Positions 24,305 to 48,672 of a DNA stretch of 64,000 bases are shown here, piece by piece. Numbering within the stretch: the stretch's first letter is position 1; every line of letters begins with the position of its first letter. The notes under the pieces are model-generated. The model did not search any database, was not told the origin of the DNA, and saw only the letters and a list, made by a program, of their open reading frames with translations. This stretch comes from Amoebidium appalachense (Eukaryota; Protista; Ichthyosporea). Where the stretch lies: the NCBI GenBank assembly GCA_963693365.1, contig CAVNZM010000001.1, positions 21,459,210-21,523,209 on the forward strand, written 5' to 3'. Made by a program: the position numbers and the translations under genes.

Positions 24305-24792
24305 CCTCCCAAAGTTTGGTTGTGCTCCCATCAATCCCCTGCACGTTATTAACTGTTGCCAACCCCCAACCCCCCCTTTTCCCTATGTATTATAGCGCAT
24401 TTTGCCTAATATGGACGTACAACGGTTAATAACTTTCCCCACAGAAATGGGGAGACAGTCCGACCGGTTTTGTTAGACCCCCCACACAGAGACACTGCCT
24501 AATGCAAATTTTGGTTGTGCTCCCATCAATTGTTCCCCTGCACGTTATTAACTGTTGAATCCCCCCCTTTTCCCTATGTATTATAGCGCATTTTGCCTAA
24601 TATGGACGTACAACGGTTAGTAACTTTCCCCACAGAAATGGGGAGACAGTCCGACCGGTTTTGTTAGACCCCCCACACAGAGACACTGCCTAATGCAAAG
24701 TTTGGTTGTCCTCCCATCAATCCCCTGCACGTTATTAACTGTTGAATCCCCCCCTTTTCCCTATGTATTATAGCGCATTTTGCCTAATATGG
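24305..24792. repeat. 188-bp satellite of copy B (resumes at 29458-29645 after the LINE)
   Basis: Same unit as 9455-12890, interrupted at TAATATGG|ACGTAC. Confidence 0.92.
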
Positions 24793-24951
24793 GGTTTACA
24801 CACTTTTTATTGCGTGGACATTGCCGGAGGCCCAGCCACATTCGACGGCCTACTGCGTTTTCCAGCACAGCCAATCAAATGCAGCCAGTGACATATGTAC
24901 ATGCTAGGCAACAATGAGCGCCATCGTAGTATCTGACACCCCTATTACATA

Positions 24952-27900
24952 TTATGGGTAAGCAGATGCTAGCATCGGTAGCTCCGACAGAAAGTTAAGG
25001 CACCGGATCACAATATCATACTGTGCAGCATTAATAAGGTGATCTAGGATAGTCATCTTAAAACGGATATATTGAGGAAGAGAGGGAGAAAAGAGAATAA
25101 AACCGCCAATAACCTCCGGTTCTAATACACTAGCTAACAGGTTGCATTTATTGATAGATATGCAGCCGCGAGTAAACCGCCCCCCACACATATTACACAT
25201 ACGAGCAGGAGACACCAGAAACCGATTACACCGCCAAGCCATAATCATCTTTGCGTTTTTACACCACACCACATTACGAATAAACGAATCTATGTATGAA
25301 CGAGACTCTCTAACCGTATCCGCCATATAGGCTACTAGTAGTGGGTGTTTGTGCGGTCCTAACACCGGAAGGGACTCAACACGTAGAGTAAAAAGATATC
25401 TATCAGCCATAGATTTGAAACTATTCATATTCACACTATGATCTAGCCGTACCTCCGGGGGGGTCGCCAGCCATTCCACATAGCGCTCGGCAATGGGCAG
25501 AGACGATGGGGAAGGGAAGAGGTACAGGGACGAATCCGGCGGGGATGCGTGTAGCCGGAAGAGCGGGTGGTCCGGGGCACAAGCGGACAGGCGGGTGATG
25601 TGCTCGTGAAATTTAAGGGCTAATTCGTGTACGCGTTGTGATGGTGGTGTGAGTGCGTAGAGAGAATCAAAAAGGCGTCTAGGGATAGGTGTGGAAAGAC
25701 CAGTGAGAAACATACAACAAGTTGTGTAATGGAAATCATCTAATGATTTGAGGACATTAGTAACAGTATCAGGGGGTGCCATAGCTAGTAAGGGCAACCC
25801 GTATTCCGACAAAGGGCGAATATATGTGCGAAATATACTAAGACGATTGTATAGGTGGACAGTATGAGAAAGAGTAGCAAGATACACATCCCGAAATAAC
25901 CGAAGACACCTGCCTGCACTCTCCACCCGACGGTCGATCATCCGTTTGAAACATATGCCCCATTCGTCCACCGGAATCCCCAAATACTTGTATTCGATTG
26001 GGCGAGGGAGGGGACTGCCGAAAATACAAACGTCGTCCCATGCCGGTATCGATTTTGATAAAAGGGCACACTTTTTGACATTAATCTGCATATCGTTGCG
26101 CTGGCACCAATGTTCAACCACACGAATGTATTGCCGTAGTTCGAGAGGATCGGATGACATAAGCACAATATCGTCGGCAAAAAAGAGGGCGGGAGGAGCC
26201 TGGGATGGCAACCCCCCGTCAATTTGTGCCGCAGAAAGAGTGTCGGCTAAATCATCAATATACAGGTTGAAAAGAAGAGGACTTAGCAGGGACCCTTGAA
26301 GTACCCCGCGCGTGCGGGTAAACCCTGGGGATAGCCGCCCATTAACCACCGCTCGTCCGCGTGTAAACGTAAACATAGCTTCCAGTAGCCGACCCATTTG
26401 GAATGGGACACCGCGAGTGGCTAACTTGGCCCACAGACGAGGGAGGTCGACCGTGTCGTACGCGTTCTTAAAATCGATAAATACGAGGTGCTCGGTATCA
26501 CTTTGAGTTGCATTATGTAGAGTGAGGATTTGTGCGTAACATGAGTGTCGATGCCGAAACGCCGCCTGAAGAGGGCTCAGCTGGGAAGCCTGCTTAAGGG
26601 TGGGGTTATGGGAAAAGGCCTGTAAAAGGCCACTTTCGAATAATCGGCGAAAAACGGACGTAAGGGTGATAGGGCGAAATTCGTGGATGGGACCCTGTGC
26701 AACCGTTTTCTTGATGGGAAACACTAAGGTGGCTAGCCACTCCGAGGGCACTTTACCGACATCAGAATACCAGCTAAACAACTCGCTAAGAATACATGTA
26801 AGTGGTGGCGGCGGGCCACGCTTTTCGTCTTTCTCGGGTCGGGGTGGGATGAGTACCTTAAGTAGTGCCATAGGGATGCCGTCCGGCCCGCACGCTTTGC
26901 GGGACGGGTAACGGGAGACTAACTGCCATACCGCATCTGGGGTAAAAAGTTCCCCCAATGCCGCCCCAAACTCAGCCGGCCCCGCTGGCCACGCCGTGTG
27001 TGGTGGTGGTGGTGTGTCGGAGGGTGGAACAAAAACAGGAGGGGGCGCCTGCCCCAGGTCCGTGGCCATACATGTCGGGTTACTTTTAAACAGGGTGCCG
27101 TAAAAGGAATCGGTTGCAGATTCCGGGTCGGATGACGGGTCGGCCGTTATTCGAATCGAATGATCGCCGCGATCAATCTTCCGAATATTACCCAATAGCA
27201 TGTGATACGGTAGAGGCTTACGTAAGGCAGCCTCCGCTCGAGGGCCGCGAGTGTGTGTAGTTCGTGCTTGTGGGTAAACTTGGGCACCTAAACAGGCATA
27301 TTCACCTATGTCCCACAAGGTTTCTCGTACTGTAGACCAGACGCTATCGATGAAGGTCTGGTCGGTGCGTAGTGGGGTTTGGCGTCCATCACGCACAAGC
27401 GATAATAGACTCGGTTGCACCGTCTCGAAAAAGAAGCGAGTGTCTGCTTGGCCGCGCTGGCTTTTAAGTTCGCGTACGTTAAGTCTGTAAGTGTGTTGTG
27501 GTGACGGCGTAGAAAGGCTAAGTGTAGTGCGAAAGACTATAGGTAGGTGGTCTGACGGTGGGGGGTGTAGGTTGTGGTGTATGTGTAGGGTGCAAGGACC
27601 AGAGGCTGCCCCCCAGTCCGTGCGGTGTTCTTGTACTACAGATGGAAGAGTAAGGCGTAAGGCTGTAACAAAAGTGTGAAAGGTTGGCGTGCGTGGGTGG
27701 TTGGGTTTAAGTAGGGCCTGTGGGTGGCCGTGTAGGGGGTGTGGGGTGGTAGTTAGCGGGCTATTAAAGTCTCCTAACACTAGTGTGGGGTTATGTGAGG
27801 CGATGGTGTTAAGCTCGTGTTTAAGTGCTAGAAGTGGAAGGCTAGGTGGAAAATAAACAAAAGTGCATATATGGCCACAAACTGAGATGGTGAGTGTGTG

Positions 27901-28155
27901 TATTGTACGTGCTATAACTGAACAGTGGTTAACAAAGTGGTAGGCGGCGATGAACACTATGCCGGAGTGAGGCTTGTGGCCCACAGGCTGAGTAGACTCG
28001 CCGACGAGCCGTCCAGACCGACGGAGTGTGGCGTGGTCTCGCCACCACGTTTCTGCGACAACAATAAACGGGAACTCCTGTTGGGGTAACGAAAGAAGAA
28101 ACTGTGCTTTACTCTTATTTAGACTACGAGCATTCCAGAAAAGAAAGGAGAGCAT
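24952..28155 (-). CDS. LINE family-1 ORF2: AP endonuclease + reverse transcriptase + C-terminal Cys motif (1067 aa)
   Basis: WNARSL, AETW, LGDFN, SDHLP; GPDGIP, FRPITL, FIDFKNAYD, GVLQGSLLSPLLFN, FFADD, YKYLG; CNMC...C. Confidence 0.96.
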   Translation of the reverse strand: MLSFLFWNARSLNKSKAQFLLSLPQQEFPFIVVAETWWRDHATLRRSGRLVGESTQPVGHKPHSGIVFIAAYHFVNHCSVIARTIHTLTISVCGHICTFVYFPPSLPLLALKHELNTIASHNPTLVLGDFNSPLTTTPHPLHGHPQALLKPNHPRTPTFHTFVTALRLTLPSVVQEHRTDWGAASGPCTLHIHHNLHPPPSDHLPIVFRTTLSLSTPSPQHTYRLNVRELKSQRGQADTRFFFETVQPSLLSLVRDGRQTPLRTDQTFIDSVWSTVRETLWDIGEYACLGAQVYPQARTTHTRGPRAEAALRKPLPYHMLLGNIRKIDRGDHSIRITADPSSDPESATDSFYGTLFKSNPTCMATDLGQAPPPVFVPPSDTPPPPHTAWPAGPAEFGAALGELFTPDAVWQLVSRYPSRKACGPDGIPMALLKVLIPPRPEKDEKRGPPPPLTCILSELFSWYSDVGKVPSEWLATLVFPIKKTVAQGPIHEFRPITLTSVFRRLFESGLLQAFSHNPTLKQASQLSPLQAAFRHRHSCYAQILTLHNATQSDTEHLVFIDFKNAYDTVDLPRLWAKLATRGVPFQMGRLLEAMFTFTRGRAVVNGRLSPGFTRTRGVLQGSLLSPLLFNLYIDDLADTLSAAQIDGGLPSQAPPALFFADDIVLMSSDPLELRQYIRVVEHWCQRNDMQINVKKCALLSKSIPAWDDVCIFGSPLPRPIEYKYLGIPVDEWGICFKRMIDRRVESAGRCLRLFRDVYLATLSHTVHLYNRLSIFRTYIRPLSEYGLPLLAMAPPDTVTNVLKSLDDFHYTTCCMFLTGLSTPIPRRLFDSLYALTPPSQRVHELALKFHEHITRLSACAPDHPLFRLHASPPDSSLYLFPSPSSLPIAERYVEWLATPPEVRLDHSVNMNSFKSMADRYLFTLRVESLPVLGPHKHPLLVAYMADTVRESRSYIDSFIRNVVWCKNAKMIMAWRCNRFLVSPARMCNMCGGRFTRGCISINKCNLLASVLEPEVIGGFILFSPSLPQYIRFKMTILDHLINAAQYDIVIRCLNFLSELPMLASAYP

Positions 28156-28157
28156 GC

Positions 28158-29303
28158 TTACTGGGAGTTGGCTGGTGCGGCGGTGGGGTCGTAGGGCTTG
28201 CTGAAGACCTGCACGTGCTGAGCCTCCCAGTAGGCACGGACCTCAGCTGCTGTTTTGGCCCGGCTGTCGTATGCCGGGTAAAGTGTGGCTGCCTTGACAG
28301 CCCATGCATGGGCGTTGGCCATTCTTGCAAGCACCCGGCGTTGCCAAGAGGCCCGGGCAGCGGCCTCTGCATCAACACGGTTAAGTGTGGTGTTGTAGGG
28401 AGCCGTAGGATCGAAGTCTGCGAGAAAGGTGGCGTCGGTAGCACGTTGGATGATGTTTATGAGGGTATCACGGTAGCCGGCACGCACAATGAACACTGTG
28501 TAGCGACGGCCAATGAAGAGCATGTCGGGAATCATTCGGTTGAGGACACCGAGGGTGTAAAGACGGTCACGCATGGTGCTGATGTTGGCCGGCACCATGG
28601 TGAAGGCTGCAGTGGTCAACTCGGACTCGTCGGTACCCTGAGGGGCAGGGTCAGACGCCACCCGAGGGCGGCGGGTTGGGTGCAGTGCTGACGCTGCGGC
28701 AAGGGCTGCCAAAGCCTGGGTAGCCCCGTGGGTCTGGGCCACCGACTCGGCATACGTTTTGACTTTCTCGGACACGTACACGGTCTTGGCGTCCACCGTA
28801 GTGCGGTACACCTTAGGATTCGTTGTGGGTATGAACTTGGGAGACCCCGGGGGGGTGGGTAACCCATCGGGGGTTCCCTGTGCTGCAGGGGCCGGGCCCG
28901 CGTGGGCAGGGCCGGTGGGGGTTGCCCGGTCAGCTTCCAGCTGCCGTAAGCGCGTCTCCATTTGCTGAACAAGGAGGTCTGTGTGGTCCTGTTTGGCTTT
29001 ATACTCAGCTACTTGGGTTGTTAAGTCGGAGACTTGGGTGCGGAGCTGCTCATGATGCGCCATAAGTTTGAGCACGGCTTTCCTAGCCTTCTCGGGTATC
29101 AAGTGCAGTTGTTCTTTCGTAATAAAACTACTTGCTGGCGGCACGGCCGGTGGCGCTTTAACCTCGGGAAAGGGAACCTGTTCCGCTCGGCTCAGTTTAG
29201 TTAGCCGCTTATCTGGGGATTCTCCTTCCCGTGTATCACGTTTGCGGCTCCCAGGCGGTGTCCCAGGAGGGTCCGGGGACAAGGATGCATCCTGAGACGC
29301 CAT
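28158..29303 (-). CDS. LINE family-1 ORF1 (381 aa; coiled coil + putative RNA-binding domain)
   Basis: Lies 2 nt upstream of ORF2 and has a heptad-rich segment. LGVLNRMIPDMLFIG...FDP is similar to family-2 ORF1 LGFRCSRILCLSFIG...YDP. Confidence 0.88.
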   Translation of the reverse strand: MASQDASLSPDPPGTPPGSRKRDTREGESPDKRLTKLSRAEQVPFPEVKAPPAVPPASSFITKEQLHLIPEKARKAVLKLMAHHEQLRTQVSDLTTQVAEYKAKQDHTDLLVQQMETRLRQLEADRATPTGPAHAGPAPAAQGTPDGLPTPPGSPKFIPTTNPKVYRTTVDAKTVYVSEKVKTYAESVAQTHGATQALAALAAASALHPTRRPRVASDPAPQGTDESELTTAAFTMVPANISTMRDRLYTLGVLNRMIPDMLFIGRRYTVFIVRAGYRDTLINIIQRATDATFLADFDPTAPYNTTLNRVDAEAAARASWQRRVLARMANAHAWAVKAATLYPAYDSRAKTAAEVRAYWEAQHVQVFSKPYDPTAAPANSQ

Positions 29304-29691
29304 GGGTGGGTTCTAGCTGCCCCTCAAGGGGCCTAAGTAGAGGTGGATGCCTAAGTAAAGGCCGATGCCTAAGTAGAGAAAGTAAAGAAAGAAAAAAAAG
29401 AAAGAAAAAAACAACGTGTGAAAGAAAAAAACGTGTGTGAAGAAAAAAACGTGTGTGGGACGTACAACGGTTAATAACTTTCCCCACAGAAATGGGGAGA
29501 CAGTCCGACCGGTTTTGTTAGACCCCCCACACAGAGACACTGCCCTAAAATGCAAAGTTTGGTTGTGCTCCCATCAAACCCCTGCACGTTATTAACTGTT
29601 GAACCCCCCCCTTTTCCCCACGCATTTTGCCTAATATGGACGTGCGGGGGGGGGGGGGTCGTAGTGGGAAGGAGGGGAAGACAGGGGGGGG

Positions 29692-29735
<44 letters not shown>

Positions 29736-29869
29736 CGGCAGACACGTACGTTCTGTAACGCTCCTTCATCTCGTTGAGTGAGTCCTTTTTTATAATGTAT
29801 TTCCGTTTATATATTTACACATAATCGCCACATGCATTTACCGGTGCGCCATGATAAACACATGGCCGG

Positions 29870-29879
29870 CTTATCATTG

Positions 29880-29915
<36 letters not shown>

Positions 29916-30041
29916 CACACACAGCATTCGATACTGTCCAATCTTGCTCTTCCCAAGGCATCCACATGCTCGCACACAATGCAGAAACATGCACTCACAC
30001 ACACGCACGCACACTGGCACACCGGGACACACACACACACC

Positions 30042-30137
<96 letters not shown>

Positions 30138-30338
30138 ACACACACACAAACACACAACACACACACACACACATACAGAGAGACACACACACATATGCAC
30201 ACACACGGTGCATTTCCTCCCCTCCCATTCCCTCTCCACAGAGCACACACACACACACACGTGCACACATGCACACACATGGTGCATCCCCCCCCCCCCC
30301 CTTCCCTCTCAACCGAGCACATACACACACACATACAT

Positions 30339-30373
<35 letters not shown>

Positions 30374-30542
30374 CACACATGCACACATGCACGGACACGA
30401 ATCCCCCCCCTTCCCCTTCCCTCTCCACCGAACACATGCACACATGCACAGACATGCACGCACACACACACACCACACACGACGCACACAGGCATGCACA
30501 CACACACAAACACACAACACACACACACACACATACACACAG

Positions 30543-30575
<33 letters not shown>

Positions 30576-31120
30576 TGCACACACACGGTGCATTTCCCCC
30601 CTCCCCTTCCCTCTCCACAGAGCACACACACACACACGTGCACACATGCACACACACGGTGCATCCCCCCTCTCCCCCCCTGCCCTTTCAACTGAGCACA
30701 TACACACACACAGACATGCACACACACACAACATACACAGACATCCACACATCAGACACAGACACGCATACACACACACACACAGGCACACACACACACA
30801 TGCACATATGCACACACAGACACACACACATGCACATGCACACTCACATATGCACACACACACACACACGCAAACACACACACACACACACACATACAGA
30901 TATGCACACACACACACTGTCTCTCTCTCTTTTCTCCCTCCCTCCCCACCCACCCTCCCCCCCTCCCCCCTTCCCTCCCCTCCCTCCCTCCCTCCCAACC
31001 ATCCCTCCCTCCCTCCCTCCGTCCCTCCCTCCGTCCCTCCCTCCCCCCTCCCTCCCTCCCTCCCAACCATCCCTCCCTCCCTCCCGCCGTCCCTCCCTCC
31101 CTCCGTCCCTCCCTCCCTCC

Positions 31121-31166
<46 letters not shown>

Positions 31167-31200
31167 GCACACACACACATGCACATGCACATGCACATGC
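29870..31200. repeat. (CA)n-rich and (CCCT)n low-complexity tract with internal duplications
   Basis: Directly visible; cacacggtgcatttcc...ccctctccacagagc is repeated at ~30203 and ~30583. Confidence 0.9.
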
Positions 31201-34200
31201 ACCCCTTGTAGCATAGAACCCCCCTTGTAGCATAGTATATGTACATATGTTACCTAGACATTATTGGGTTTTCAATAACTACCCACAGAACAGCCTCTAG
31301 CACGAGACATTTACCACAAAGTTTATGGGGGGGATGGTAAATGTGCCCCTGGAGTACGAGGGTCACACGAAAAAAACACAACGTTGTAGCTCGTATAGAA
31401 CCCCCCTTGTAGCATAGTATATGTCCATGTGTTACCTCAGTAGACATTTTTGGTGTTTTCAATAACTACCAACAGAACAGCCTCTAGCACGAGATATTTA
31501 CCACAAAGTTTATGGGGGGGATGGGGAATGTGCCCCTGGAGTACGAGGGTCACACAAAAAAAAACACAACGTTGTAGCTCGTATAGAACCCCCCTTAAAG
31601 CATAGAATAGGTACATATGTTACCTAGACATTATTGGTTTTTCAATAACTACCCACAGAATAGCCTCTAGCACGAGAACTTTACCACAACGTTTGTGGGG
31701 GGGATGGTGAATGTGCCCCTGGAGTACGAGGGTCACACGAAAAAAACACAAAGTTGTAGCTCGTATAGAACCCCCCTTGTAGCATATTATATGTACATGC
31801 GTTGCTTACACATTATTGGTTTTTTCAATAACTACCCACAGAACAGCTTCTAGCACGAGAACGTTACCACACAATTTATGGGGGGGATGGGGAATGTGCC
31901 CCTGGAGTATGAGGGTCACACGAAAAAAACACAACGTTGTAGCTCGAATAGAACCCCCCTTGTAGCATAGTATATGTACATGCGTTGCTTACACATTATT
32001 GGTTTTTTCAATAACTACCCACAGAACAGCTTCTAGCACGAGAACGTTACCACTCAGTTTATGGGGGGGATGGGGAATGTGCCCCTGGAGTACGAGGGTC
32101 ACACGGAAAAAACACAACGTTGTAGCTCGAATAGAACCCCCCTTGTAGCATAGTATATGTACATGCGTTGCTTACACATTATTGGTTTTTTCAATAACTA
32201 CCCACAGAACAGCTTCTAGCACGAGAACGTTACCACACAGTTTATGGGGGGGATGGGGAATGTGCCCCTGGAGTGCGAGGGTCACACGAAAAAAACACAA
32301 CGTTGTAGCTCGAATAGAACCCCCCTTGTAGCATAGTATATGTACATGCGTTGCTTACACATTATTGGTTTTTTCAATAACTACCCACAGAACAGCTTCT
32401 AGTACGAGAAATTTACCACACAGTTTATGGGGAAGATGGGGAATGTGCCCCTGGAGTACGAGGGTCACACAAAAAAAAACACAACGTTGTAGCTCGTATA
32501 GAATCCCCCTTGTAGCATAGAATATGTACATATGTTACCTAGACATTATTGGTTTTTCAATAACTACCCACAGAATAGCCTCTAGCACGAGAAATTTACC
32601 ACAAAGTTTGTGGGGGGGATGGTGAATGGGCCCCTGGAGTACGAGGGTCACACGAAAAAAACACAAAGTTGTAGCTCGTATAGAACCCCCCTTGTAGCAT
32701 AGTATATGTCCATGTGTTACCTAGACATTTTTGGTTTTTTCAAAAACTACCCACAGAACAGCTTCTAGCACGAGAAAGCTACCACACAGTTTATGGGGGG
32801 GATGGGGAATGTGCCCCTGGAGTACGAGGGTCACACGAAAAAAACACAACGTTGTAGCTCGAATAGAACCCCCCTTGTAGCATAGTATATGTACATGTGT
32901 TGCTTACACATTAATGGGTTTTTCAATAACTACCCACAGAACAGCTTCTAGCACGAGAAATTTACCACACAGTTTATGGGGGGGATGGGGAATGTGCCCC
33001 TGGAGTACGAGGGTCACACGAAAAAAACACAACGTTGTAGCTCGAATAGAACCCCCCTTGTAGCATAGCATATGTACATATGTTACCTAGACATTATTGG
33101 TTTTTCAATAACTACCCACAGAATAGCCTCTAGCACGAGAAATTTACCACACAGTTTGTGGGGGGGATGGTGAATGGGCCCCTGGAGTACGAGGGTCACA
33201 CGAAAAAAACACAAAGTTGTAGCTCGTATAGAACCCCCCTTGTAGCATAGTATATGTCCATGTGTTACCTAGACATTTTTGGTTTTTTCAAAAACTACCC
33301 ACAGAACAGCTTCTAGCACGAGAAAGTTACCACACAGTTTATGGGGGGGATGGGGAATGTGCCCCTGGAGTACAAGGGTCACACGGAAAAAACACAACGT
33401 TGTAGCTCGAATAGAACCCCCCTTGTAGCATAGTATATGTACATGCGTTGCTTACACATTATTGGTTTTTTCAATAACTACCCACAGAACAGCTTCTAGC
33501 ACGAGAACGTTACCACACAGTTTATGGGGGGGATGGGGAATGTGCCCCTGGAGTGCGAGGGTCACACGAAAAAAACACAACGTTGTAGCTCGAATAGAAC
33601 CCCCCTTGTAGCATAGTATATTTACATGCGTTGCTTACACATTATTGGTTTTTTCAATAACTACGCACAGAACAGCTTCTAGCACGAGAAATTTACCACA
33701 CAGTTTATGGGGGGGATGGGGAATGTGCCCCTGGAGTACGAGGGTCACACAAAAAAAAACACAACGTTGTAGCTCGTATAGAATCCCCCTTGTAGCATAG
33801 AATATGTACATATGTTACCTAGACATTATTGGTTTTTCAATAACTACCCACAGAATAGCCTCTAGCACGAGAAATTTACCACAAAGTTTGTGGGGGGGAT
33901 GGTGAATGGGCCCCTAGAGTACGAGGGTCACACGAAAAAAACACAAAGTTGTAGCTCGTATAGAACCCCCCTTGTAGCATAGTATATGTCCATGTGTTAC
34001 CTAGACATTTTTGGTTTTTTCAAAAACTACCCACAGAACAGCTTCTAGCACGAGAAAGCTACCACACAGTTTATGGGGGGGATGGGGAATGTGCCCCTGG
34101 AGTACGAGGGTCACACGAAAAAAACACAACGTTGTAGCTCGAATAGAACCCCCCTTGTAGCATAGTATATGTACATGTGTTGCTTACACATTAATGGGTT

Positions 34201-34715
34201 TTTCAATAACTACCCACAGAACAGCTTCTAGCACGAGAAATTTACCACACAGTTTATGGGGGGGATGGGGAATGTGCCCCTGGAGTACGAGGGTCACACG
34301 AAAAAAACACAACGTTGTAGCTCGAATAGAACCCCCCTTGTAGCATAGCATATGTACATGCGTTGCTTACACATTATTGGTTTTTTCAATAACTACCCAC
34401 AGAACAGCTTCTAGCACGAGAAAGTTACCACACAGTTTATGGGGGGGATGGGGAATGTGCCCCTGGAGTGCGAGGGTCACACGAAAAAAACACAACGTTG
34501 TAGCTCGTATAGAACCCCCCTTGTAGCATAGTATATGTACATATGTTACTTGCACATTATTGGTTTTTTCAATAACTACCCACAGAACAGCTTCTGGAAC
34601 GAGAAATTTACCACAAAGTTTATGGGGGGGATGGTGAGTGTGCCTCTGGAGTACGAGGGTCACCCGAAAAAAACACAACATTGTAGCCCGGATTGAAACC
34701 CCCTTTGTACCATGT
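31201..34715. repeat. Satellite, 183-bp unit, ~19 copies, with a 7-unit (~1280-bp) higher-order duplication
   Basis: GCCCCTGGAGTACGAGGGTCACACG recurs every ~183 bp. The variant series starting at ~32264 repeats at ~33544. Confidence 0.95.
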
Positions 34716-34852: not shown

Positions 34853-34904
<52 letters not shown>

Positions 34905-36034: not shown

Positions 36035-36461
36035 ATGTTCCAGGTTGCCCCTGTCAATGCCGCCGACCCCGACAAGTTGGCAGACCAGGTTAGGTGCCGC
36101 AAGAAGACGTGGGAGGGGTGGCTGGTGGAGGTTCAAGTTGAGTGCAACAACCATCCCTGTGGCCACATGTATAGCGTCGATCCGGTGAGGGGCAACCCAT
36201 GGGGCAACTCCGCCCTTCACCGCATCATGTGCATGTCCCCCATCAACGGCTCCTACATCAAGAACCGCCTCAGCAGCTTCAAGACACTAAACGTTTGTGC
36301 CCATCTCCCCCCCCCCCCCCCCCCCCCCCCCCCCACACACACACACCACACCCCAATCAAAGACGAAGTCTTCTCATGCTGCTTTTTTTAACATGCTTAT
36401 TCATGTTTAATGTTGTTGTTCTTCCTTATTGGTTCATTCTTAATGCACTGTGACCCCCCCC

Positions 36462-36492
<31 letters not shown>

Positions 36493-38165: not shown

Positions 38166-38906
38166 AATGAGGAGGAATAGGGAAAGACCCCCCCCCCCCC
38201 CCGGAGGAAAAAAAAAAAAGAATTAATACTTAGTTTATGTCTCTTTTCAAGTGTAGTCCCGGCCTCTGCAGGGGGGAGATAGGGAGATAGGGGGGACATG
38301 TAGACTTCGTATTTTATTTGTGTGATGATGTTTGTTTTGTTTTGTTTGTTGGTTTGTTGGTTTGTTTAGTTTGTTCGGTGAAAGCTGGACTCCTGTGGAG
38401 TCTAACAGAGTGAAATGGTCTCTACTCCTGTGGCGTGAGACTTAGAAATTTTTTAACATGAACAACTTGTGCGGTCTCTGCTCCAGTGGAGCGAGACATA
38501 AAGGAACAACAGTCTTAATGGTATCTCGTGTACAAATTGTGAAAAAGTTAGAAAGGTAAGAAGGAAGGGGGGGGGGGGGGGGGGGGGAGGGGGGCACAAC
38601 GGTGGTGGTTACTTTTCGTATTATGATATTACGACAGCTCGTAATCGTATATTACGACATTCCGTAATATTGTATTTAGTTAGTCATGGTATACTCGTAA
38701 CATATTATTTGGCTATGCATAGGATATCTTATGGATGGACAAAGAGCTGTCGTAATGATGTATACACGACATGCTATGTATATACATACGAGTGGTGTAC
38801 GGGCTCTTATGGAAATGTCTACGACGGTTTTATGGGGGTCGTAATGTACCCCAGGACCAGCCATATGTATATCACCACACCACTCCGTAGAAACACAATA
38901 ACAACC

Positions 38907-39881
38907 ATGCCGAAACTTTCGGTTGATACAGTACTGGCAGAACTTGCCCTCGTTAAGAAACAGCTAAATGAGCTGTTACCACTCAAGAACATGATAGAAA
39001 AACTCCAAACAGAAAATACCCAACTCAAGCTCACCATTGATTCACTCACAGCCCAGCTAAACATTAGTGGATCGCAAAACCCCAAAACTCATGAGCAAAC
39101 ATCTCGCGACGGAGACATTTCCACCCCAACACAAAACAACACAGGACCGGAAGCACAGCTCCCGGCAGAGTTCCTAGAATATGCGAACTCTCGTAAAACA
39201 CCCGAGCTCCGCCAAATTGCCAAGGAAACATATGCCAGCATTCTTGCAGGCAACGAGTACCGCCGCAACTCCCCTCCCAAACCGCCGGCTAAGGGGAACA
39301 CCCAAGCAAACGGTAACATCAACATCCCACCCAAATACGAGAGGGTGTATTTCAAAGTCAAGCACGGCAGACGCCCACACAGGGCCATGTGGTCCATCTT
39401 CAAGGCTCTCGGCTTCCGGTGCTCTCGCATCCTTTGTCTGTCCTTCATTGGATACGATGTGCTGGAAGTAGCAGTACGGGGCGACTATAACCGTGCGTTC
39501 ATCCGTGACGCGACAAAGGGGTGTGGAAGCTTCTTCACCCACCTCCCAAGCTACGACCCATGCGCGCCGGAAAACATTCAGAAAGCAGACAAAGAACGTA
39601 AAGTGTCTGCTAAGAATGCGTGCGCCACACGTTGTCGTGTACGCATCAGCAAGGCAAAAGAGTTCCTCGCAAAGTTGGAAAACGATGCTACGAGCGTGAT
39701 AGACACGGACACGAAGGAACCAATGTTTTCTGGTGAGAAACTGCTCGAGCGCAAACGCCGATGCGAGATGGAAATCGAGCTCTTCTGCGAACTGTTCGCG
39801 CTGGCGGAAGGTCGTGCATACGACCCCGTAAGCGACAAGTGGGAACCAACCCCACAGGTGTCGGACCAAACCGATGCCTAA
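38907..39881 (+). CDS. LINE family-2 ORF1 (324 aa, starts MPKLSVD)
   Basis: First ATG inside the TSD-defined element; N-terminal coiled coil; overlaps ORF2 by 8 nt (ATGCCTAA). Confidence 0.88.
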   Translation: MPKLSVDTVLAELALVKKQLNELLPLKNMIEKLQTENTQLKLTIDSLTAQLNISGSQNPKTHEQTSRDGDISTPTQNNTGPEAQLPAEFLEYANSRKTPELRQIAKETYASILAGNEYRRNSPPKPPAKGNTQANGNINIPPKYERVYFKVKHGRRPHRAMWSIFKALGFRCSRILCLSFIGYDVLEVAVRGDYNRAFIRDATKGCGSFFTHLPSYDPCAPENIQKADKERKVSAKNACATRCRVRISKAKEFLAKLENDATSVIDTDTKEPMFSGEKLLERKRRCEMEIELFCELFALAEGRAYDPVSDKWEPTPQVSDQTDA

Positions 39882-42800
39882 TTTATCCTTCTTCTTCTGG
39901 AATGCTCGGACACTGGGCCCCCAAAAGGGCCTCCCCCCCGGGACACTCGACGATAAAATCAGCTACATACAACAACAGACAAACAACCACACGTTTACAG
40001 TGATTTGCGAAACACAGTTTAAAAACCACCACAAATTCAACTCTACATTGGTCGACACATCCACACACCCCGGTTACGCGAAAAACCGAGGCATTATTGT
40101 ACTTGCCGCACCACACGTGAGAGTGAAGTGCAAACCGGTAGCAAAAACGGAATTCTCGGTTTCTATAGAGTTTCTTTCTAATGTTTTTACTTTTGTATAT
40201 TACCCACCATCTATGTCGGTTGTCGAATTGACTCACGAGTTGTCACAGTTACCAATGTCCACTGTTATTTTAGGTGATTTTAACACGCGACTCCACCACA
40301 CAGACACACTGCAAGTGAGTGTCGGGTACCCATCTAAGCCCCCGGAGCGTGCTATCCCTTTAGCAAGGTATGTCCAAAGTCACACTTTGCGGTTCCCTCA
40401 AATATCCCATGCCCACAACACCGACTGGGGAGTGGCCTTTTGGCCATCAACCATGTCAAAACTCTCTCTCCCTCCTAACCTCTCTAGGTCATCTGACCAC
40501 TCTCCTATCCTTTTCCTACCTAAGATCTCCCTTGATCTGCTCCCCCCTCCCCCTCCCACCTTTCGCCTCCGTCTATCCCAGCTTAAGTCACAGTGGGGTA
40601 GAGTTGATGTATGTGTATGCTATGCTACGAAACACCCTATATATATGCGCCTATTAGAATCTGCACAAGCCAGGCCAGATTCACATCTCGTACTAGATAC
40701 ATGCACTAACTTTATTGTTGATGATTTGATAGATCTCGGTGATTATGCTGGCGGTGGTAGGAAGGAATACCCCGATGCTCTCTTGTTACCAAACACCACT
40801 CCCGCTAGACTAGGTGAACCCCTGTCTCAAAAGGAAAGCTTGCGCCGGCTTGCTAGTATGAATCGATTTGGCCCCCCTGCTCGTATTATTGGTGATACCA
40901 CTGGAGACCCCCTCATAGACTCTGATAAGTATTTCTCGGAACTGTTTAAAGATAGGACCCCCGCTCAGAAACCTATTGTGTGGCCTGTAGACCCATCTAT
41001 CCCCATAGAAACGATCCTCCCCTTTTTCAGTCCCGATGCCATATGGTCTGTGATATCTAGTTATAGCTCTAGTAAGTCTTGTGGACCTGATGGACTCCCT
41101 GCTGGGTTTCTTAAAATCCTTGTTCCCTCCTACCCACAAAAGGAAAGTGATCGTGCTATTAAACCTGATCTTACTATCATGTTAAGCTCTCTCTTTTCTT
41201 GGTGTGTTAAATGTGGACATGTCCCGTCATCTTGGTTAGATACCTTAGTGATCCCCATAGTTAAGAAGGACTCTGAGGGCCCCATATCATCCTTTCGCCC
41301 CATTACACTAACCCAGGTTGTTCGTAGATTCTTTGAAGCTTGCTTACTTAGGTTATTTGCACATCACCCTAGGTTTCAATCTATTCTTCACATACACCCA
41401 TGCCAATCCGCTTTTCGTAAAAACAATTCATGTTATGTTCAAATAATGGCACTGCACGATTCTATGCAAGTTGGTGCACAATATGTTGGCTTTATTGATT
41501 GGAAAACTGCTTACGATTCTGTCTCCCCTGGTCTCCTATGGGAAAAGCTTGCTGCACGGGGTGTACCACACTGCATTGGTGTTCTGTTAGAAGCACTCTT
41601 GTCTCAAACCTATGGTAGAGCTGTGGTTAATGGGCATCTTTCATATGGTTTTGCTCGTACTAGAGGTCTCTTGCAGGGTTCATTGCTTAGCCCCTTTTTG
41701 TTTAACCTATTTATAGATGATTTGGCTGTCAAGATTTACGCCGAAAACGATGACCCTATTAATAACTTTCCGCCTGCACTTCTCTATGCTGATGATCTGT
41801 CCCTCCTTGCCCGTACCCCTAGACGCCTGCAAAGATTGTTCGATGTAGTGTCAGAGTGGTGCAAGGCAAACCTTATGATCCTTAACATAGACAAATGTGG
41901 TGTTCTTGTACCTGATATAGCTAACAATTTACACACATTTACATTATCATCTAAACCTGTACCTATAGTTCCAGAATACAAATATCTTGGTGTTCCGGTT
42001 GATTCTGTTGGTGTTATGTTTCCCCATATGGTCGAAAAGAGGGTAGAGTTGGCTCGTAAGCGGTTAGCTTTCTTCTCGGCTAATATTTTTAAAGACACAC
42101 CCCTCCATCCTTCTATTAGACTTACATTTATTCGCACTTTTGTCTTCCCGGCATGTGAATATGGTTTACCCCTTCTCGCCGCTTGGATCAAGAAAGAGAG
42201 AACTAGAGCGCTTAAACCCTTGGCAAATTTCCTTGAAGCAGAAGTTGCCTCCTTTCTATCTAACAACTGTTGTAAACCTGGGCCTGTAACGCTCTCGATA
42301 TATGGTCTGGTCCCAATAGCTGCTAGAGTATCCTATCTCGCGCTGAAATTCAATAAGCACATAAGCCGCTTAAAGAAGTATTTGCCCTCCCACCCTCTCT
42401 TCTCTATCCGACCTGTCCCCTCCTCACCTCTCCCCTCTTTCCTCCCCTCTCTCTCCCCTTCTCCCCTGGGCACAAATACAAATAAACCCCGCAATAGTGT
42501 GTGTGTGACTTTGGACTGCCACTTACTTATTAAACATGTACACAATCACAAGATAATCACGCAATATAACAAATGGAAAAAGATACCACACGACACTAGA
42601 CCCGATGAAAGCATACACCTTGAAAAACTAAGCCTTATGTCTCGTTTTATATATACTGACCGCCTCAACCATATTGCCAAATATGGCACTCGCAAGTGTA
42701 TAACACCTAAATACATATTACCTTCCTGTAGAACTGGTCTTTCTCTAGCTGATGGTATTATTGATCAATTACCACGCTTTTACTGTACACGTGCTATACA

Positions 42801-43068
42801 GTGGAGATCTAATAAGTATAAGGTGGCATCATTTGCATGCCCAAACAACACACACACACACCAGTTTAACCGGTCATGTATCGCCAAATGTAGTTTGATA
42901 GACCACATAATACCGCAACACACACACGTCACATTCACAACAGACACCCAGAAAGATAGCCTACCTGTAAATTACAACATCCTTGATTTTATACTAAACA
43001 CGCGTAACTACGACCTGTTTATTAGATGTATTGATTGGCTTGAGAAACACATCACTACAAAATTATAG
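39874..43068 (+). CDS. LINE family-2 ORF2: AP endonuclease + RT (1064 aa)
   Basis: WNART, CETQ, LGDFN, SDHSP; GPDGLP, FRPITL, FIDWKTAYD, GLLQGSLLSPFLFN, LYADD, YKYLG. Confidence 0.96.
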   Translation: MPNLSFFFWNARTLGPQKGLPPGTLDDKISYIQQQTNNHTFTVICETQFKNHHKFNSTLVDTSTHPGYAKNRGIIVLAAPHVRVKCKPVAKTEFSVSIEFLSNVFTFVYYPPSMSVVELTHELSQLPMSTVILGDFNTRLHHTDTLQVSVGYPSKPPERAIPLARYVQSHTLRFPQISHAHNTDWGVAFWPSTMSKLSLPPNLSRSSDHSPILFLPKISLDLLPPPPPTFRLRLSQLKSQWGRVDVCVCYATKHPIYMRLLESAQARPDSHLVLDTCTNFIVDDLIDLGDYAGGGRKEYPDALLLPNTTPARLGEPLSQKESLRRLASMNRFGPPARIIGDTTGDPLIDSDKYFSELFKDRTPAQKPIVWPVDPSIPIETILPFFSPDAIWSVISSYSSSKSCGPDGLPAGFLKILVPSYPQKESDRAIKPDLTIMLSSLFSWCVKCGHVPSSWLDTLVIPIVKKDSEGPISSFRPITLTQVVRRFFEACLLRLFAHHPRFQSILHIHPCQSAFRKNNSCYVQIMALHDSMQVGAQYVGFIDWKTAYDSVSPGLLWEKLAARGVPHCIGVLLEALLSQTYGRAVVNGHLSYGFARTRGLLQGSLLSPFLFNLFIDDLAVKIYAENDDPINNFPPALLYADDLSLLARTPRRLQRLFDVVSEWCKANLMILNIDKCGVLVPDIANNLHTFTLSSKPVPIVPEYKYLGVPVDSVGVMFPHMVEKRVELARKRLAFFSANIFKDTPLHPSIRLTFIRTFVFPACEYGLPLLAAWIKKERTRALKPLANFLEAEVASFLSNNCCKPGPVTLSIYGLVPIAARVSYLALKFNKHISRLKKYLPSHPLFSIRPVPSSPLPSFLPSLSPSPLGTNTNKPRNSVCVTLDCHLLIKHVHNHKIITQYNKWKKIPHDTRPDESIHLEKLSLMSRFIYTDRLNHIAKYGTRKCITPKYILPSCRTGLSLADGIIDQLPRFYCTRAIQWRSNKYKVASFACPNNTHTHQFNRSCIAKCSLIDHIIPQHTHVTFTTDTQKDSLPVNYNILDFILNTRNYDLFIRCIDWLEKHITTKL

Positions 43069-43092
43069 CGCACGCGCACACACACACACAAA

Positions 43093-43141
<49 letters not shown>

Positions 43142-43205
43142 CCAGCTGATACCGAGTGTCCCGAGGGAAGCCCCTTTAAAAAAATTAAAATTAAAATTAA
43201 AAAAA

Positions 43206-43245
<40 letters not shown>

Positions 43246-43664
43246 GGGGAACCCCAACTAATTGATTTCTCCTTGTAGTCTTTATGGTGTCTCGTAGAGA
43301 AAGTAAACCCTGATATATAGTCACCACCCGACATCTATGTACGTGATCATGATATACCGCTGAGGGGATATTCCGAGCAAAACCCCCCCCCCCATACCTG
43401 AGACTGGTTCTCTTTGCCTCGAGTAAACAGCGTAAACCCCCATATGTATATCATATGTATATGGTTGGTAATTCGTAAAATACATCGATGTATATCATAT
43501 GTCATGGGTTACGATGGTATTAAGCCGCTCCTAAACATATACTTAAGATATCCAACGGGATGGGTTTGGATACTCGGATGGTGAAGATTACGATGGGTTT
43601 CCGACCCCTCGTAACGCTCTCGTATGTATGTTCTATGTATAGTCGTATGTATATACATAGGTTA

Positions 43665-43830
43665 TACATTGGATATACATTGGTTATCCTATGTATAGTG
43701 CAATGTATATACATTGGATATCTTATGTACAGTGCAATGTATATACATTGGATATCCTATGCATAGTGCAATGTATATACATTGGATATCCAATGTATAG
43801 TGCAATGTATATACATTGGATATACATAGG
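43665..43830. repeat. 34-bp tandem repeat (~4.5 copies) in the right subterminal region of copy B
   Basis: GTGCAATGTATATACATTGGATAT at ~43698, 43732, 43766 and 43800. Confidence 0.9.
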
Positions 43831-44091
43831 ATATACATATGACATACGCTTTACGACATCCATAAACCCTATGGATGTCGTAAAGAGGGTTGATGGATGT
43901 CGTAAAGCGTATATCCAATGTATATACATAAGACGGTCCGTTAACCCCATGGAACTCTTTACACTATCGTAAAGAGGTCGTGCAACCACTCCATATGAAC
44001 TCGCGGTGTGCTTTACGATGGGTGACAGGTTTACGCCATCGAGGATGGCATTACGAGGGGTATACGATCCCCGGTGGAGATTGCTGATGGC

Positions 44092-45210
44092 AGAGATGCG
44101 CGCAGCCCTGAAGGCACTGGGCATCATCTTCCAAGAGGTCGGCAAGGGTAAGACGCCCAAGGCCAAACAACCCCGGGCTCAGGAGTCCGAGGATTCTGAC
44201 GACGGGCCCAGGAGGCTTAAGAGGGCGGAAACCGTGATGAAGCTGGTACGTAACATAGTTTTGCTTACCCCCTCCAGTTCTAGAGAGGACCCACAGAGAG
44301 TATTCCGGACACTACGATATGTGAAGTATGCGATTGTGTAGATGTCCGCGTTGCATGTACTAGATCATTATTACGAAATTCATTTGCGTAACAAGTAAGA
44401 CCATATCAAGTATGACACCTGCACAAAATATGGGGACTTCTATCAGTAATGTGCCAGCACATGTGTCGATGAGGGATATGGTGTGGTTCCTGCTTTCAAG
44501 CCTCTAACAGCATTCAGGACTCTAACCCATTTTTCTTTTGTCTGCCTCTGCAGTACGACCACAGCAAAGGGATGTCCAAGTCCCACGTCGTTTTTCAAAA
44601 TATGACGCTGTACTTCCCATTCAGCAACACAAACAAGACGGATAACGAGCCCGTCATCAGAGCGTGGCTTGCGAGTGTGAAGGCCACCAACCGCGCCCTC
44701 TACAACATCCTCCACCCAGAGGGGATCGAGGATTGGGTTCAGGAGCTCAGCAACCCCGCAAAAAACACGGACGCCCAGAACCGTGTCACCATCATCCGCA
44801 ACGGCCTGAATTCGTGCAAGTCCGAGGTCAATCGAGGGATGCACAGCTCAATGAGGGCCTTCTCCTTGGCTGAGTCCAACCTGGATGTAAGTCAAAGTGT
44901 GCACGGTTCACCTCTTATTTTGTTTTCCTGCATGATTAAACGATTAGTTACTATTTCTATGCTGTGATTGGAATACAACAGCAACCTCGGGTCCCTCTTC
45001 AATGTATTATTACATGCGCATGTTTTCTTAATTTTTGTGCTTTTGTTTTTCAGCACAACGTGTTTCACATGTTAGCATTCAGTGTTATTCATTCATTCTA
45101 ACACCCCCCCCCCCCCCCCCCCCCCCCCCCCAAACACACACACACACACACTCGCTCACTTCCCCACCCACACATACCAAAAATCACACGCACACCAAAA
45201 GCCCCTCCCA

Positions 45211-45241
<31 letters not shown>

Positions 45242-45548
45242 TTTTCCAAAAACTGTCAAATGCCTCCATGCCCACCAACACAGATGTTCCAGGTTGCCCC
45301 TGTCAATGCCGCCGACCCCGACAAGTTGGCAGACCAGGTTAGGTACCGCAAGAAGACGTGGGAGGGGTGGTTGGTGGAGGTTGAGTGCAACAACCATCCC
45401 TGTGGCCGCATGTACAGCGTCGATCCGGTGACGGGCAACCCATGGGGCAACCCCGCCCTTCACCGCATCATGTGCATGTCCCCCATCAACGGCTCCTACA
45501 TCAAGAACCGCCTCAGCAGCTTCAAGACACTAAACGTTAGTGCCCATT

Positions 45549-45593
<45 letters not shown>

Positions 45594-46858
45594 ACGCACC
45601 ACACACACCACACCCCAATCAAAGACGAAATCTTCTCATGCTGCTTTTTTTAATATGCTTGTTCAGGTTTAATGTTGTTGTTCTTCCTTATTGGTTCATT
45701 CTTAATGCACCAGTGTGACCCCCCCCCCCCCCCCCCCCCCCCCAACACACACACACACCACACCCCAATCAAAGACGAAATCTTCTCATGCTGCTTTTTT
45801 AACATGCTTATTAATGTTTAATGTTGTTGTTCTTCCTTAATGGTTCATTCTTAATGCACTGTGACCCCCCCCCCCCCCCCCTCCCCCCCCCACAGACACA
45901 CACTCCCACTCCCTCCACTCCCTCCCTCCCACCTCCCCCTGTTGTCCCACGTACGAATCACCAACACATAACCACACAAGACATCAAATCCTTATCACTC
46001 AGAGCAACGGTACATGCATGGTTATCCAGTATCCATTCAGCTTCCCACTTCCTCAAGTCATTTCAGATTTTTCATTGTCGTATTCGGTTTTATTTGCTGC
46101 TAATGGAGAATACCCCCTTTCCTCATCACCACATACACACATGATTACGTGTACGTACACGCAACACACACACCAACACCCACACAGGAGTTTCAAAAGG
46201 CTTTGCCCGAGCTCTTCAGCTTCATGCTCCACACATTTGAGTGCGGACTGCGGGATCCAATGGCCCACAAGTCTGCCACTCAGATTTCGTGGTCAGCTGT
46301 GAAGTATGGAGCTGACATGCCTGACTACGAGGGTGGTGCTCGGCCATCAGAGATCAGCAAGGTATACAACTACCCCCCCCCCCCCCCCCCCCCTTGCGTC
46401 CTCCCTGAGGATGGGCTCTGCTTATGACGCATACTGTGCACATGGCTGATGTTGCGTGCTTGAATGTTTGCCTTTGCATGTGTCCTGCACCATGCTTCTC
46501 ATCGTGTATGCGTATTTCGTACCGTGTTCTGCATTCAAACCCCCCCCCCCCCCCCATCATTGTGTTTTAGCTCCCGTCCGAAAGACAACGTATGGATATC
46601 GAAATGATGATATTTATAAGTCGTATGTATGGGTTACGTATCATCGTAGTTTTTTAGGATATCTCCTAAGCATGGGCAAGTATCATCCTATCATGTCATC
46701 TTTAGGTTTGGTATGGTAACATTGTGATAGCATTTTTCCCAGGTACATACATGCTCAGGCTAGCCAGAAAAGTTAAAAACACTCACACAATCTCCTTCTG
46801 TCCCAACCCAGTATGCAAAGACCTGGGAAAAGATCTGCAAGGTCCGGGAGAAGGCAGT
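44092..46858 (+). CDS. 3' part of copy A's JmjC gene: exons 44092-44245, 44554-44886, 45284-45535, 46188-46361, 46812-46858 (last exon truncated by a deletion)
   Basis: In-frame continuation of exon 21306-21362. All subsequent GT-AG junctions are phase 0 and open. At 46858 the sequence jumps to the equivalent of 43881. Confidence 0.8.
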
Positions 46859-47540
46859 AAAGAGGGTTGATGGATGTCGTAAAGCGTATATCCAATGTAT
46901 ATACATAAGACGGTCCGTTAACCCCATGGAACTCTTTACACTATCGTAAAGAGGTCGTGCAACCACTCCATATGAACTCGCGGTGTGCTTTACGATGGGT
47001 GACAGGTTTACGCCATCGGAGATGGCATTACGAGGGGTATACGATCCCCGGTGGAGATTGCTGATGGACACCCCGACAATCAACGGTTACCCCCCCCCCC
47101 CCCCCCCCCCCCCCTGGAATGATGAAGAAAGCATAAAAAAAAATTGCCTTGGCCGTCGGTGCGTGTAACAAACTGTTCGAGGTCGCTGTACTCCACAAAC
47201 ACAGTGGAATAGAGTGTTTCCTCGAGGCACTCATCACGCTCGTCGTGTGTCCAGAAAAGTTCTTGAACTGAAACCACCCTGGCATGGAACCAACGACGCA
47301 CACTTGCACGGCCACCAGGTGGTCTGGTTCCGTGTCCTGTGCAGTAACGGTGGCCCAGTCTGGCGAGACCGTGACAGTGGCAGTCCAACTCCTTGGTTTC
47401 GACATCAACATGTTTGCGGTAGTACGTGCAGCATAAACTAATCAGATCGAGCGAGGGTGACTGCGCTTTGACGTTCGCGTATTACGTCATGGTTATTTGT
47501 ACACCACACATGGCCCACCCGCCCACGACCCACCCGCGCT

Positions 47541-47571
<31 letters not shown>

Positions 47572-47603
47572 AAAAATTGTCTGGCCTTTGGACGGACGTA
47601 CCC

Positions 47604-47634
<31 letters not shown>

Positions 47635-47794
47635 ACACGCGCACACACCCCAACACCCAACACACATGCACACAAAACCATGTACACATGTGTACACCAG
47701 CCCACACAAACACACACACACACACGAACATGCACATTCGCTCACACGCTTCCACCCACACTCGTACGTGCCATCGCAATGTTGCAATGTTACA

Positions 47795-48480
47795 TATAAA
47801 GACAGTGCACGCGACATCTTGAACACACACGCCATCCAAAGTGGTGTGACCGCATAAATTGATATTTATGCCCAGTTATCGAATTTGATTGGCAAACCCG
47901 CTATCTGGAATGTTTGCCTGATGCTCTTCCGTATGGAATGTTCGCGTGCTGCGGGCTTCTTTCGATTGGGCTGTTACTCTGCACGCAAGATTACAACTGT
48001 TTCCACATGAACCAGAGTCTACGGTGGACTACCAGAGTCCCCTGCACCATGATAACGCGTCCCTCCGGCTGGCGTCCCCCAAATGATCTTCCTATTGTTT
48101 AAGGACCACGTTTCCTCGTCCCGCTAGTACTATTACATAGAGTACTATTACATAGCAACATTTACTTTCCATTGTCCATAATTTTAATCCATTCAACAAA
48201 CGAAGTCCATACACCTGTGTCCTCGCAATGTCATGGCAATCCAGCCCCCCCCACATATAAACACAGCGCACGCGATACCTTGAATGGAGCGCATAAATTG
48301 TGCGTCATTTTTCTTATGTCCCGTTAAAATATTTTTTATGGCCCGTAAGTGAATGGAGCGCATAAAATGTGGGCCATTTTTCTTATGTCCCGTTATAATG
48401 ATTTTTATGCCCCGTTATCAAATTTGATTGGCAAACCCGCTATCTTGAATGTTTGCCTGATGCTCTTCCATATAGAATGG
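47795..48480. repeat. Diverged ~450-bp direct repeat; the second copy is split by the LINE and resumes at 52218-52560
   Basis: 47861-47940 matches 48400-48480, and 47941-48235 matches 52219-52555. Confidence 0.8.
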
Positions 48481-48672
48481 GGGTTTACGCTGTTTACTCG
48501 AGGCAAAGAGAACCAGTCTCAGGTATGGGGGGGGGTTTTGCTCGGAATATCCCCTCAGCGGTATATCATGATCACGTACATAGATGTCGGGTGGTGACTA
48601 TATATCAGGGTTTACTTTCTCTACGAGACACCATAAAGACTACAAGGAGAAATCAATTAGTTGGGGTTCCCC

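Follow-up and report, generated by a model that had tools for sequence, protein, structure and literature searches.

In L1, a T-rich primer pairs with the poly(A) of the element's RNA, and the tails and nick-site preferences of long interspersed nuclear elements (LINEs) are thought to co-evolve. Tails other than poly(A) are carried by the 'stringent-type' LINEs, among them the I factor with (TAA)n and eel UnaL2 with (TGTAA)n, which need or recognise a particular 3' end and whose tails differ in length by template slippage (PMC3747384). TRAS1 and R1 of silkworm and the microsatellite-specific families are site-specific LINEs with an apurinic/apyrimidinic endonuclease (APE-type; PMC4640811, PMC5035012). 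The LINE marY2N of Tricholoma, from the Agaricales, has been described with a poly(A) tail (PMC10627285). Here, we analysed 64,000 nucleotides of the ichthyosporean Amoebidium appalachense (GenBank assembly GCA_963693365.1, contig CAVNZM010000001.1, positions 21,459,210 to 21,523,209 of the forward strand). This whole stretch, hereafter the window, in whose own coordinates positions are given, consists of repeats throughout and holds, within the range studied, three LINE copies of two families, LINE A being of one family and LINEs B and C of the other. We think it reasonably probable that these are two related families of APE-type LINEs that end in GTAAAC and three to six Cs with no poly(A), and that they would be copied by target-primed reverse transcription starting on the C run from nicks ending in G, with a mild predicted preference for C(C)/AT(AT), the slash marking the nick or insertion point here and below. 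We regard them as ordinary in their behaviour, in a variant uncommon among LINEs, and not as specialised parasites of the adjacent DNA transposon. The three copies, with their open reading frames (ORFs) and 3' untranslated regions (UTRs), are laid out as follows.

24791..29457, minus strand: LINE A, full length, 4,667 bp, with its 5' end CACACACG at 29457
29303 (ATG), open frame to 28158, minus strand: LINE A ORF1
28242-24952, minus strand: LINE A ORF2 frame, with RVT_1 (1.4e-29) and Exo_endo_phos (1.3e-4)
24799-24791, minus strand: terminus GTAAACCCC of the LINE A 3' UTR, which is ~160 nt long
38875..43441, plus strand: LINE B, full length, 4,567 bp, with the 5' end CCACACCAC
38907 (ATG), open frame to 39881, plus strand: LINE B ORF1
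39832-43068, plus strand: LINE B ORF2 frame, with RVT_1 (6.1e-28)
43432-43441, plus strand: terminus GTAAACCCCC of the LINE B 3' UTR, within which lie a (CA)n and a long A tract
48479..52217, minus strand: LINE C, 3,739 bp, a 5'-truncated B-family copy, with the terminus GTAAACCCCC at 48488-48479
52089-48850, minus strand: LINE C ORF2 frame, intact, with RVT_1 (6e-28)

All three copies end in GTAAACCCC(C), that is, GTAAAC and a few Cs, and their junctions with the flanking DNA read GTAAACCCCATATT in A (24799-24786, minus), GTAAACCCCCATATG in B (43432-43446, plus) and GTAAACCCCCATTCT in C (48488-48474, minus). These strings had been picked out by an earlier sequence-only reading of the window, whose start for A (24800) was one base off; its description of two divergent families with otherwise unlike 3' UTRs was borne out as well. 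The ORF2 products of A and B are 35% identical along their full length of ~1,100 amino acids (aa), those of ORF1 are hardly alignable (E 8e-4), and the 3' UTRs can be aligned only across the final ~9 bases, GTAAACCCC. By simple arithmetic, two homologous elements would share the same 9-mer at their very ends with a chance of ~4^-9. Poly(A) is found at none of the three ends (0/3), despite the long internal A tract in the B-family 3' UTR. The 3' limit of LINE B was set by comparison with copy C, by the drop in contig depth described below and by its target-site duplication; the last CC of LINE A (24792-24791) doubles as host sequence, and the last C of LINE C may be host. Between LINEs B and C the identity is 99.3% over 3,701 columns but the flanks are unlike, which makes them independent and recent insertions of a single family; these features and the open ORF2 frames point to recent activity.

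To look beyond these copies, Logan contigs of the public runs X1 and X3 were mapped onto the 3' ends of both families. The last kilobase of LINE B drew 4067 (X1) and 4052 (X3) contigs, and the end of LINE A 2494 and 2092, respectively. Across 43443/43444 the summed depth of the B family fell from 595,263 to 4,002 in X1 (~149-fold) and from 805,262 to 10,846 in X3 (~74-fold), with a drop of ~8- to 13-fold at the end of LINE A. Among the classes of loose ends listed, those of the B family after 43440 (four Cs; 20 contigs in X1 and 17 in X3) have a consensus that opens ATA in both runs, and 8 contigs leave the reference after 43451, while those of the A family fall at 24792 (three Cs; 8 and 9), at 24791 (four Cs; 12 and 12) and, in X3 only, at 24790 (9). 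None of the consensuses listed at the two 3' junctions is an A run. The depth drop at the C run, the missing A run and the thousands of contigs together mean that the end, the absence of poly(A) and a very high copy number are family-wide, and the proposed poly(A)-less terminus is thus real well outside the window. It is not invariant, however: no listed end is polyadenylated, but the C run ranges from 3 to 6 across copies. Directly past the Cs, agreement within classes is 0.38-0.49, indicating heterogeneous flanks. Two loose ends without an A run were also seen in X19/X20 contigs over the A 3' UTR; the RNA nature of these runs is only guessed, and we draw no inference from them.

The targets themselves can be read from empty sites in related repeats for A and C and from a duplication flanking B; the repeat that received A belongs to a PlavakaB-type DNA transposon, described further below.

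9459..12886, minus strand: empty site for LINE A, a 187-bp tandem array of 18 units in the first PlavakaB copy; GTTGTACGTCC/ATATTAGGC
38861..38874, plus strand: upstream copy of the B target-site duplication, (CC)ATATGTATATCA
43440..43453, plus strand: downstream copy of the same duplication, its first CC overlapping the C run of the LINE
47860..48190, minus strand: empty-site paralog for LINE C, uninterrupted; CACGCGAAC/ATTCCATACGGAAGAGC

On either side of LINE A the 187-bp host array picks up again, at 29458 and 24792, and its intact units read GTACGTCC/ATATTAGG (GTACGTCC/ATATT) at the insertion site. As CCATATT is present in intact units, the host supplies CCAT at A, and any duplication amounts to at most CC (<=2 bp); contigs in which A's flank runs straight into array sequence, ACGTACAACGG, number 6 in X1 and 5 in X3. 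The 14-mer CCATATGTATATCA occurs exactly twice in the window, even with one mismatch allowed, against 0.02 expected, once on each side of LINE B, which gives a duplication of 12-14 bp and a target CAGCC/ATATGTATATCA with a host CCAT. The paralog of C's site, whose junction is also given as CACGCGAAC/ATTCCATACGG, has the core GCGAAC/ATTCC, so that here the host supplies CAT only and no more than one C can be duplicated (<=1 bp). The statement that all three LINEs abut CCAT therefore stands as a string, the host itself supplying CCAT to A and to B and no more than CAT to C. The proposed nick end in ATGG-3', which could pair with the terminal Cs, is present in the targets reconstructed for A and for B; that of C offers ATG-3' only. 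The nick falls at C/AT in all three cases and at CC/ATAT in two of them. Two other interpretations of these flanks, integration that is near-blunt and without target-site duplication as a family trait (raised by A and C) and 3' transduction as the source of B's 436-bp flank, were both dropped in view of the 12-14 bp duplication of B. A group of LINEs with a sequence preference, as earlier proposed, would fit the C/AT of 3/3 window sites. Genome-wide, the best-supported junction classes break after 3, 4 or 5 Cs into unlike sequence, so that CCAT is at most a preference and not a fixed site. Most copies of a site-specific LINE would lie at one target; the window offers three different targets, and agreement among the loose ends listed stays at the low values given above in both runs, though a short preferred motif would be compatible with these listed classes.

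The encoded proteins place these elements among the non-long-terminal-repeat retrotransposons with an APE-type endonuclease, as which we classify them by their reverse transcriptase (RT) domain, endonuclease fold and motifs, and duplication and 5' truncation. The ORF2 frames of A, B and C are open over 1,078-1,096 codons and match Pfam RVT_1 in 3/3, while the Exo_endo_phos match in LINE A ORF2 is weak (1.3e-4, under Pfam's own cut-off). In the N-terminal part (270 residues), A, B and their relative P0002 all keep the motifs N, E, GDFN and SDH (N..E..GDFN..SDH), which we take to be the catalytic motifs of the L1 endonuclease. A structure model of this region (mean predicted local distance difference test score, pLDDT, 54, low confidence) found the L1, TRAS1 and R1 endonucleases as top Foldseek matches (8e-7 to 2e-5), the best being L1 endonuclease 1vyb (8e-7), with 1wdu (TRAS1 endonuclease), 2ei9 and 6a43 also among them. 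An ORF2 profile run against PDB matched human L1 ORF2p (2.7e-24) and R2 proteins (2.9e-23) with similar strength. The elements have two overlapping ORFs, with ORF1, endonuclease, RT and a Cys/His region, C-terminal in ORF2, all intact, and no terminal repeats flank LINE A or LINE B in a self-comparison of the window. ORF1 of both families matched no Pfam family at E <= 0.001, including the L1-type Transposase_22. By domain order and mode, these would be L1-like APE LINEs, with an ORF1 that is not of the Pfam L1 type and PDB support for L1 and R2 alike.

In a protein search, the closest sequences were P0001 (99%, a fragment) and P0002 (46%), all others being at <=31%. P0001 is a 751-aa fragment, 99% identical to LINE B ORF2, from an EukProt record with a name styled like a transcriptome assembly, which hints that the B family is transcribed somewhere. 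At least 82% of the 31-mers sampled from LINE B are present under six coded organism labels. ESM Atlas matches were generic APE-RT clusters without taxa, and a protein-based scan of metagenome contigs gave, for the 80 kept of 234 confirmed loci, identities of 23-37%, with the best full matches at 27-32%. In those loci GTAAACCC, part of the LINE end, occurs 2 times in 345,917 bases against 5.3 expected, neither at a LINE end, these relatives being too distant for a test of tail conservation; an exact scan of metagenome contigs for the last 23 bases of LINE B gave 0 matches.

Set beside the described systems, the two families resemble L1-type LINEs (human L1 ORF2p, 1vyb) in their N-terminal APE-type endonuclease, RT, C-terminal Cys/His region and two overlapping ORFs, as well as in 5' truncation, variable duplications and a nick end that is complementary to the RNA tail, here by prediction. 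They differ from L1 in having a tail of GTAAAC and C(3-6) instead of poly(A), a predicted nick end of G instead of Ts, and an ORF1 without a Pfam match. With the I factor and UnaL2 they share a specific 3' end and a variable tail length; unlike those elements they have, as tail, a mononucleotide C run that follows an unvarying hexamer. A conserved stem-loop was looked for and not found, and no partner short interspersed nuclear element was seen in the window. The endonuclease fold (1wdu, 2ei9, 6a43) and a tail that matches the target may link them to TRAS1 and R1, as far as the model goes; those elements sit at one defined repeat, whereas here flanks differ between copies. marY2N, compared by description only, is like them in being a LINE, and it comes from the group of fungi for which Plavaka transposons are described. 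An Rfam scan of the window returned no family.

On the account that we prefer, the terminal GUAAAC(C)n would be a conserved, inherited site at which the RT recognises and starts on its own RNA, which would explain why this stretch alone survived the divergence of the 3' UTR. The endonuclease would nick the bottom strand after ...AT(G)G, the cut predicted in GTACGTCCATATTAGG lying on the bottom strand after ATGG, and one or two target Gs would then form pairs with the Cs that close the RNA. Differing pairing registers, or slippage along the run, may produce the 3-6 Cs, second-strand cleavage would be variable, at 0-14 bp downstream, and LINEs would come to lie within PlavakaB solely through the abundance and CCAT-richness of its arrays. 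Several observations weigh against this account. The C-run + AT pattern was chosen post hoc, with n=3 junctions of known empty site, and the target of C has one G for pairing. B-family loose ends after 43441 (five Cs; 24 + 20 contigs listed) have the consensus CTTGA..., which we read as a sixth C, and 6 contigs listed after 43442 read CCCCCA and then A; in the A family, every junction class listed (X3: 9 + 12 + 9) departs from the reference before the AT, with T or A as the next base. These loose-end counts are of classes among those listed, beside 206 and 302 further rows, and give a consensus, not proportions. Folding of the last 120 nt shows no shared or significant hairpin before the end (z -1.9 for A, +0.9 for B), and the endonuclease model is of low confidence, as noted above. 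The terminus, targets, duplications and truncation are features of the DNA, from which the RNA start site, nick and pairing are predicted; the RNA's own 3' end is not observed.

Some of the same data would suit insertion without any target preference, in which the RT recognises the shared oligo(C) end, the AT and CC at the three sites are coincidental and insertion takes place at essentially random nicks or breaks. Flanks are heterogeneous directly past the C run (agreement 0.38-0.49), AT is missing from all listed A-family junction classes, and the duplications range from 0-2 to 12-14 bp, as in unspecific LINEs. We nevertheless regard this as possible but rather unlikely. AT follows 2571 of the 21647 C runs in the window (0.119), so its presence at 3/3 junctions has p = 0.0017; a host C or CC precedes the nick in 3/3, while among AT sites in the window CAT accounts for 0.31 and CCAT for 0.085; and the B-family consensus past four Cs opens ATA in two runs. 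A different reading would make CCAT part of the element, the RNA ending in ...CCCCAU and the target motif being simply the last bases of the LINE, and B and C are indeed alike through ...CCCCCAT before they diverge. It is highly improbable, because the empty sites contradict it: CCATATT already stands in uninterrupted array units at A's site, CCATATG in the upstream duplication copy of B and CATTCC in C's paralog. Many contigs, moreover, depart from the reference right after the Cs.

The transposon in which LINE A lies calls for separate consideration, since the sequence-only reading suggested that the LINEs may parasitise it. The 5'-CATCA terminus is described for PlavakaB in PMC12730594, and with this terminus and a Plavaka transposase the host is of PlavakaB type.

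5499..7750, plus strand: PlavakaB-type copy 1, left end, with the terminus CATCAGCAATCTCC at 5499-5512 and subterminal arrays of 358-bp units carrying 9 of the 16 GTAAACCCATCCAT motifs
15488..16707, minus strand: Plavaka transposase fragments in two frames (Pfam PF18759, 1.4e-20 and 1.3e-9)
21363..24792, plus strand: PlavakaB-type copy 2, left end, starting with CATCAGCAATCTCC, with 7 of the 16 motifs and then a 187-bp array cut by LINE A

The blocks 5499-9934 and 21363-24792 are in the same orientation and ~95% identical. The two left ends, in direct orientation, are separated by 15.9 kb that contain the transposase fragments and an ORF with a JmjC domain (19363-20439, plus; PF02373, 4.6e-10). 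The motif GTAAACCCAT, whose full form is GTAAACCCATCCAT, is present in 16 copies against 0.30 expected, all within the subterminal 358-bp arrays at 5580-7750 and 21443-23263.

Targeting of PlavakaB by a sequence-specific group of LINEs, whose tail and target would together mimic GTAAACCCAT, would fit the position of LINE A, inside PlavakaB-type copy 2, in its 187-bp array and 3.4 kb from the CATCA terminus. It would also fit LINE B, in whose flanks short motifs of a similar sort occur (ATGGGTT and GTCGTAA, for example) and which may on that ground have Plavaka-like flanks; LINE C sits within an unclassified repeat. The LINE end and the host motif do have GTAAACCC in common, and the motif is real, with 16 copies of GTAAACCCAT in the arrays, but the likeness is one of 8 bases and CAT, the LINE junctions having one or two more Cs than the motif. 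By simple arithmetic, the two strands together, 128 kb, would yield ~2 chance matches to an 8-mer, and such a likeness has a chance of ~1-5% against the array units of the window, so that it is not rare. Moreover, none of the 16 motif sites has a LINE (0/16), the three targets have only C(C)AT in common, GTAAAC is absent from A's empty site, and flanks in public contigs are heterogeneous. CCAT/ATGG reaches 26.7 per kb in the PlavakaB arrays against 11.2 in the whole window, and CCATAT/ATATGG 5.25 per kb in the 187-bp array against 1.19, so that a LINE landing there needs no special targeting. We therefore see such targeting as quite improbable, and the idea of a parasite of the Plavaka-type transposon is not upheld: abundant CCAT-rich arrays explain both the likeness to the motif and the location, and specialisation of one transposon on another need not be assumed. 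Also improbable is a scenario in which a LINE lineage swapped the pairing of poly(A) with a T-rich primer for an oligo(C) tail and an ATGG-nicking endonuclease, and the putative transposase-binding motif of PlavakaB, ATGGATGGGTTTAC, with its nick site beside the LINE terminal hexamer, makes the subterminal arrays preferred landing pads; were this true, it would be a retrotransposon adapted to a DNA transposon.

Further details of the LINEs and of the window were noted. The 5' UTR of LINE A (29457-29400, minus) opens with ~2.5 tandem copies of CACACACGTTTTTTTCTT, and C(C)ACAC is the start of both LINE A and LINE B. At the 5' end of LINE C (52217-52146, minus), an 18-nt piece, CCGATGCGAGATGGAAAT, stands four times in tandem, whereas full-length LINE B has it once (about 39761-39778); this looks like repeated template switching or slippage during 5' joining. 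In the B-family 3' UTR (43071-43258, plus; likewise in C), a (CA)n of ~70 nt accompanies an A-rich tract with a run of >30 As, with ~185 nt of unique sequence between this tract and the C-run end; some public contigs omit 43006-43277 of LINE B and have 22 other letters in place. One X1 contig joins a B-type six-C end (...CTCGAGTAAACAGCGTAAACCCCCC) to the A-family 3' UTR at 24889, beside ACATATG, and would be a nested LINE-in-LINE insertion. A second copy of B's surroundings, 45034-47067, is 90-100% identical to 35792-44090 and lacks 37672-43879, that is, the whole of LINE B with ~1.2 kb upstream and 0.4 kb downstream; the GT common to the joint suggests a deletion following segmental duplication. 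Elsewhere, a Copia-type element at 53862-60562 encodes gag-pre-integrase, integrase and RVT_2 domains (ORFs 54655-57255 and 57138-59264) between 98.3% identical flanking repeats (53862-54796 and 59618-60562), with remoter copies of these at 61003-61984 and 63318-63895. Satellites comprise a 183-bp array of 19 copies (31213-34713), arrays of 107-132 bp rich in long G runs (13860-14627), and ~900 bp of (AC)n then (CTCC)n (30027-31120), and homopolymer tracts of G or C, 20-45 bases long, are found repeatedly in the window (13590-13610, 29690-29740, 38567-38595 and 52340-52390, among others).

No report of C-run-tailed LINEs was found in the literature searched; Repbase lay outside that search, so an earlier description is possible. 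As judged from their sequences, oligo(C)-tailed LINEs would add to the known kinds without a poly(A) tail, as a modest departure. For annotation, the gain is a set of exact ends for two LINE families, which approaches that expect poly(A) could mis-set. A young and very abundant pair, its tail a run of Cs behind an unvarying hexamer and its empty sites exactly known, would be a natural test case for how a LINE RT chooses its start, and bears on how far one or two primer base pairs matter.

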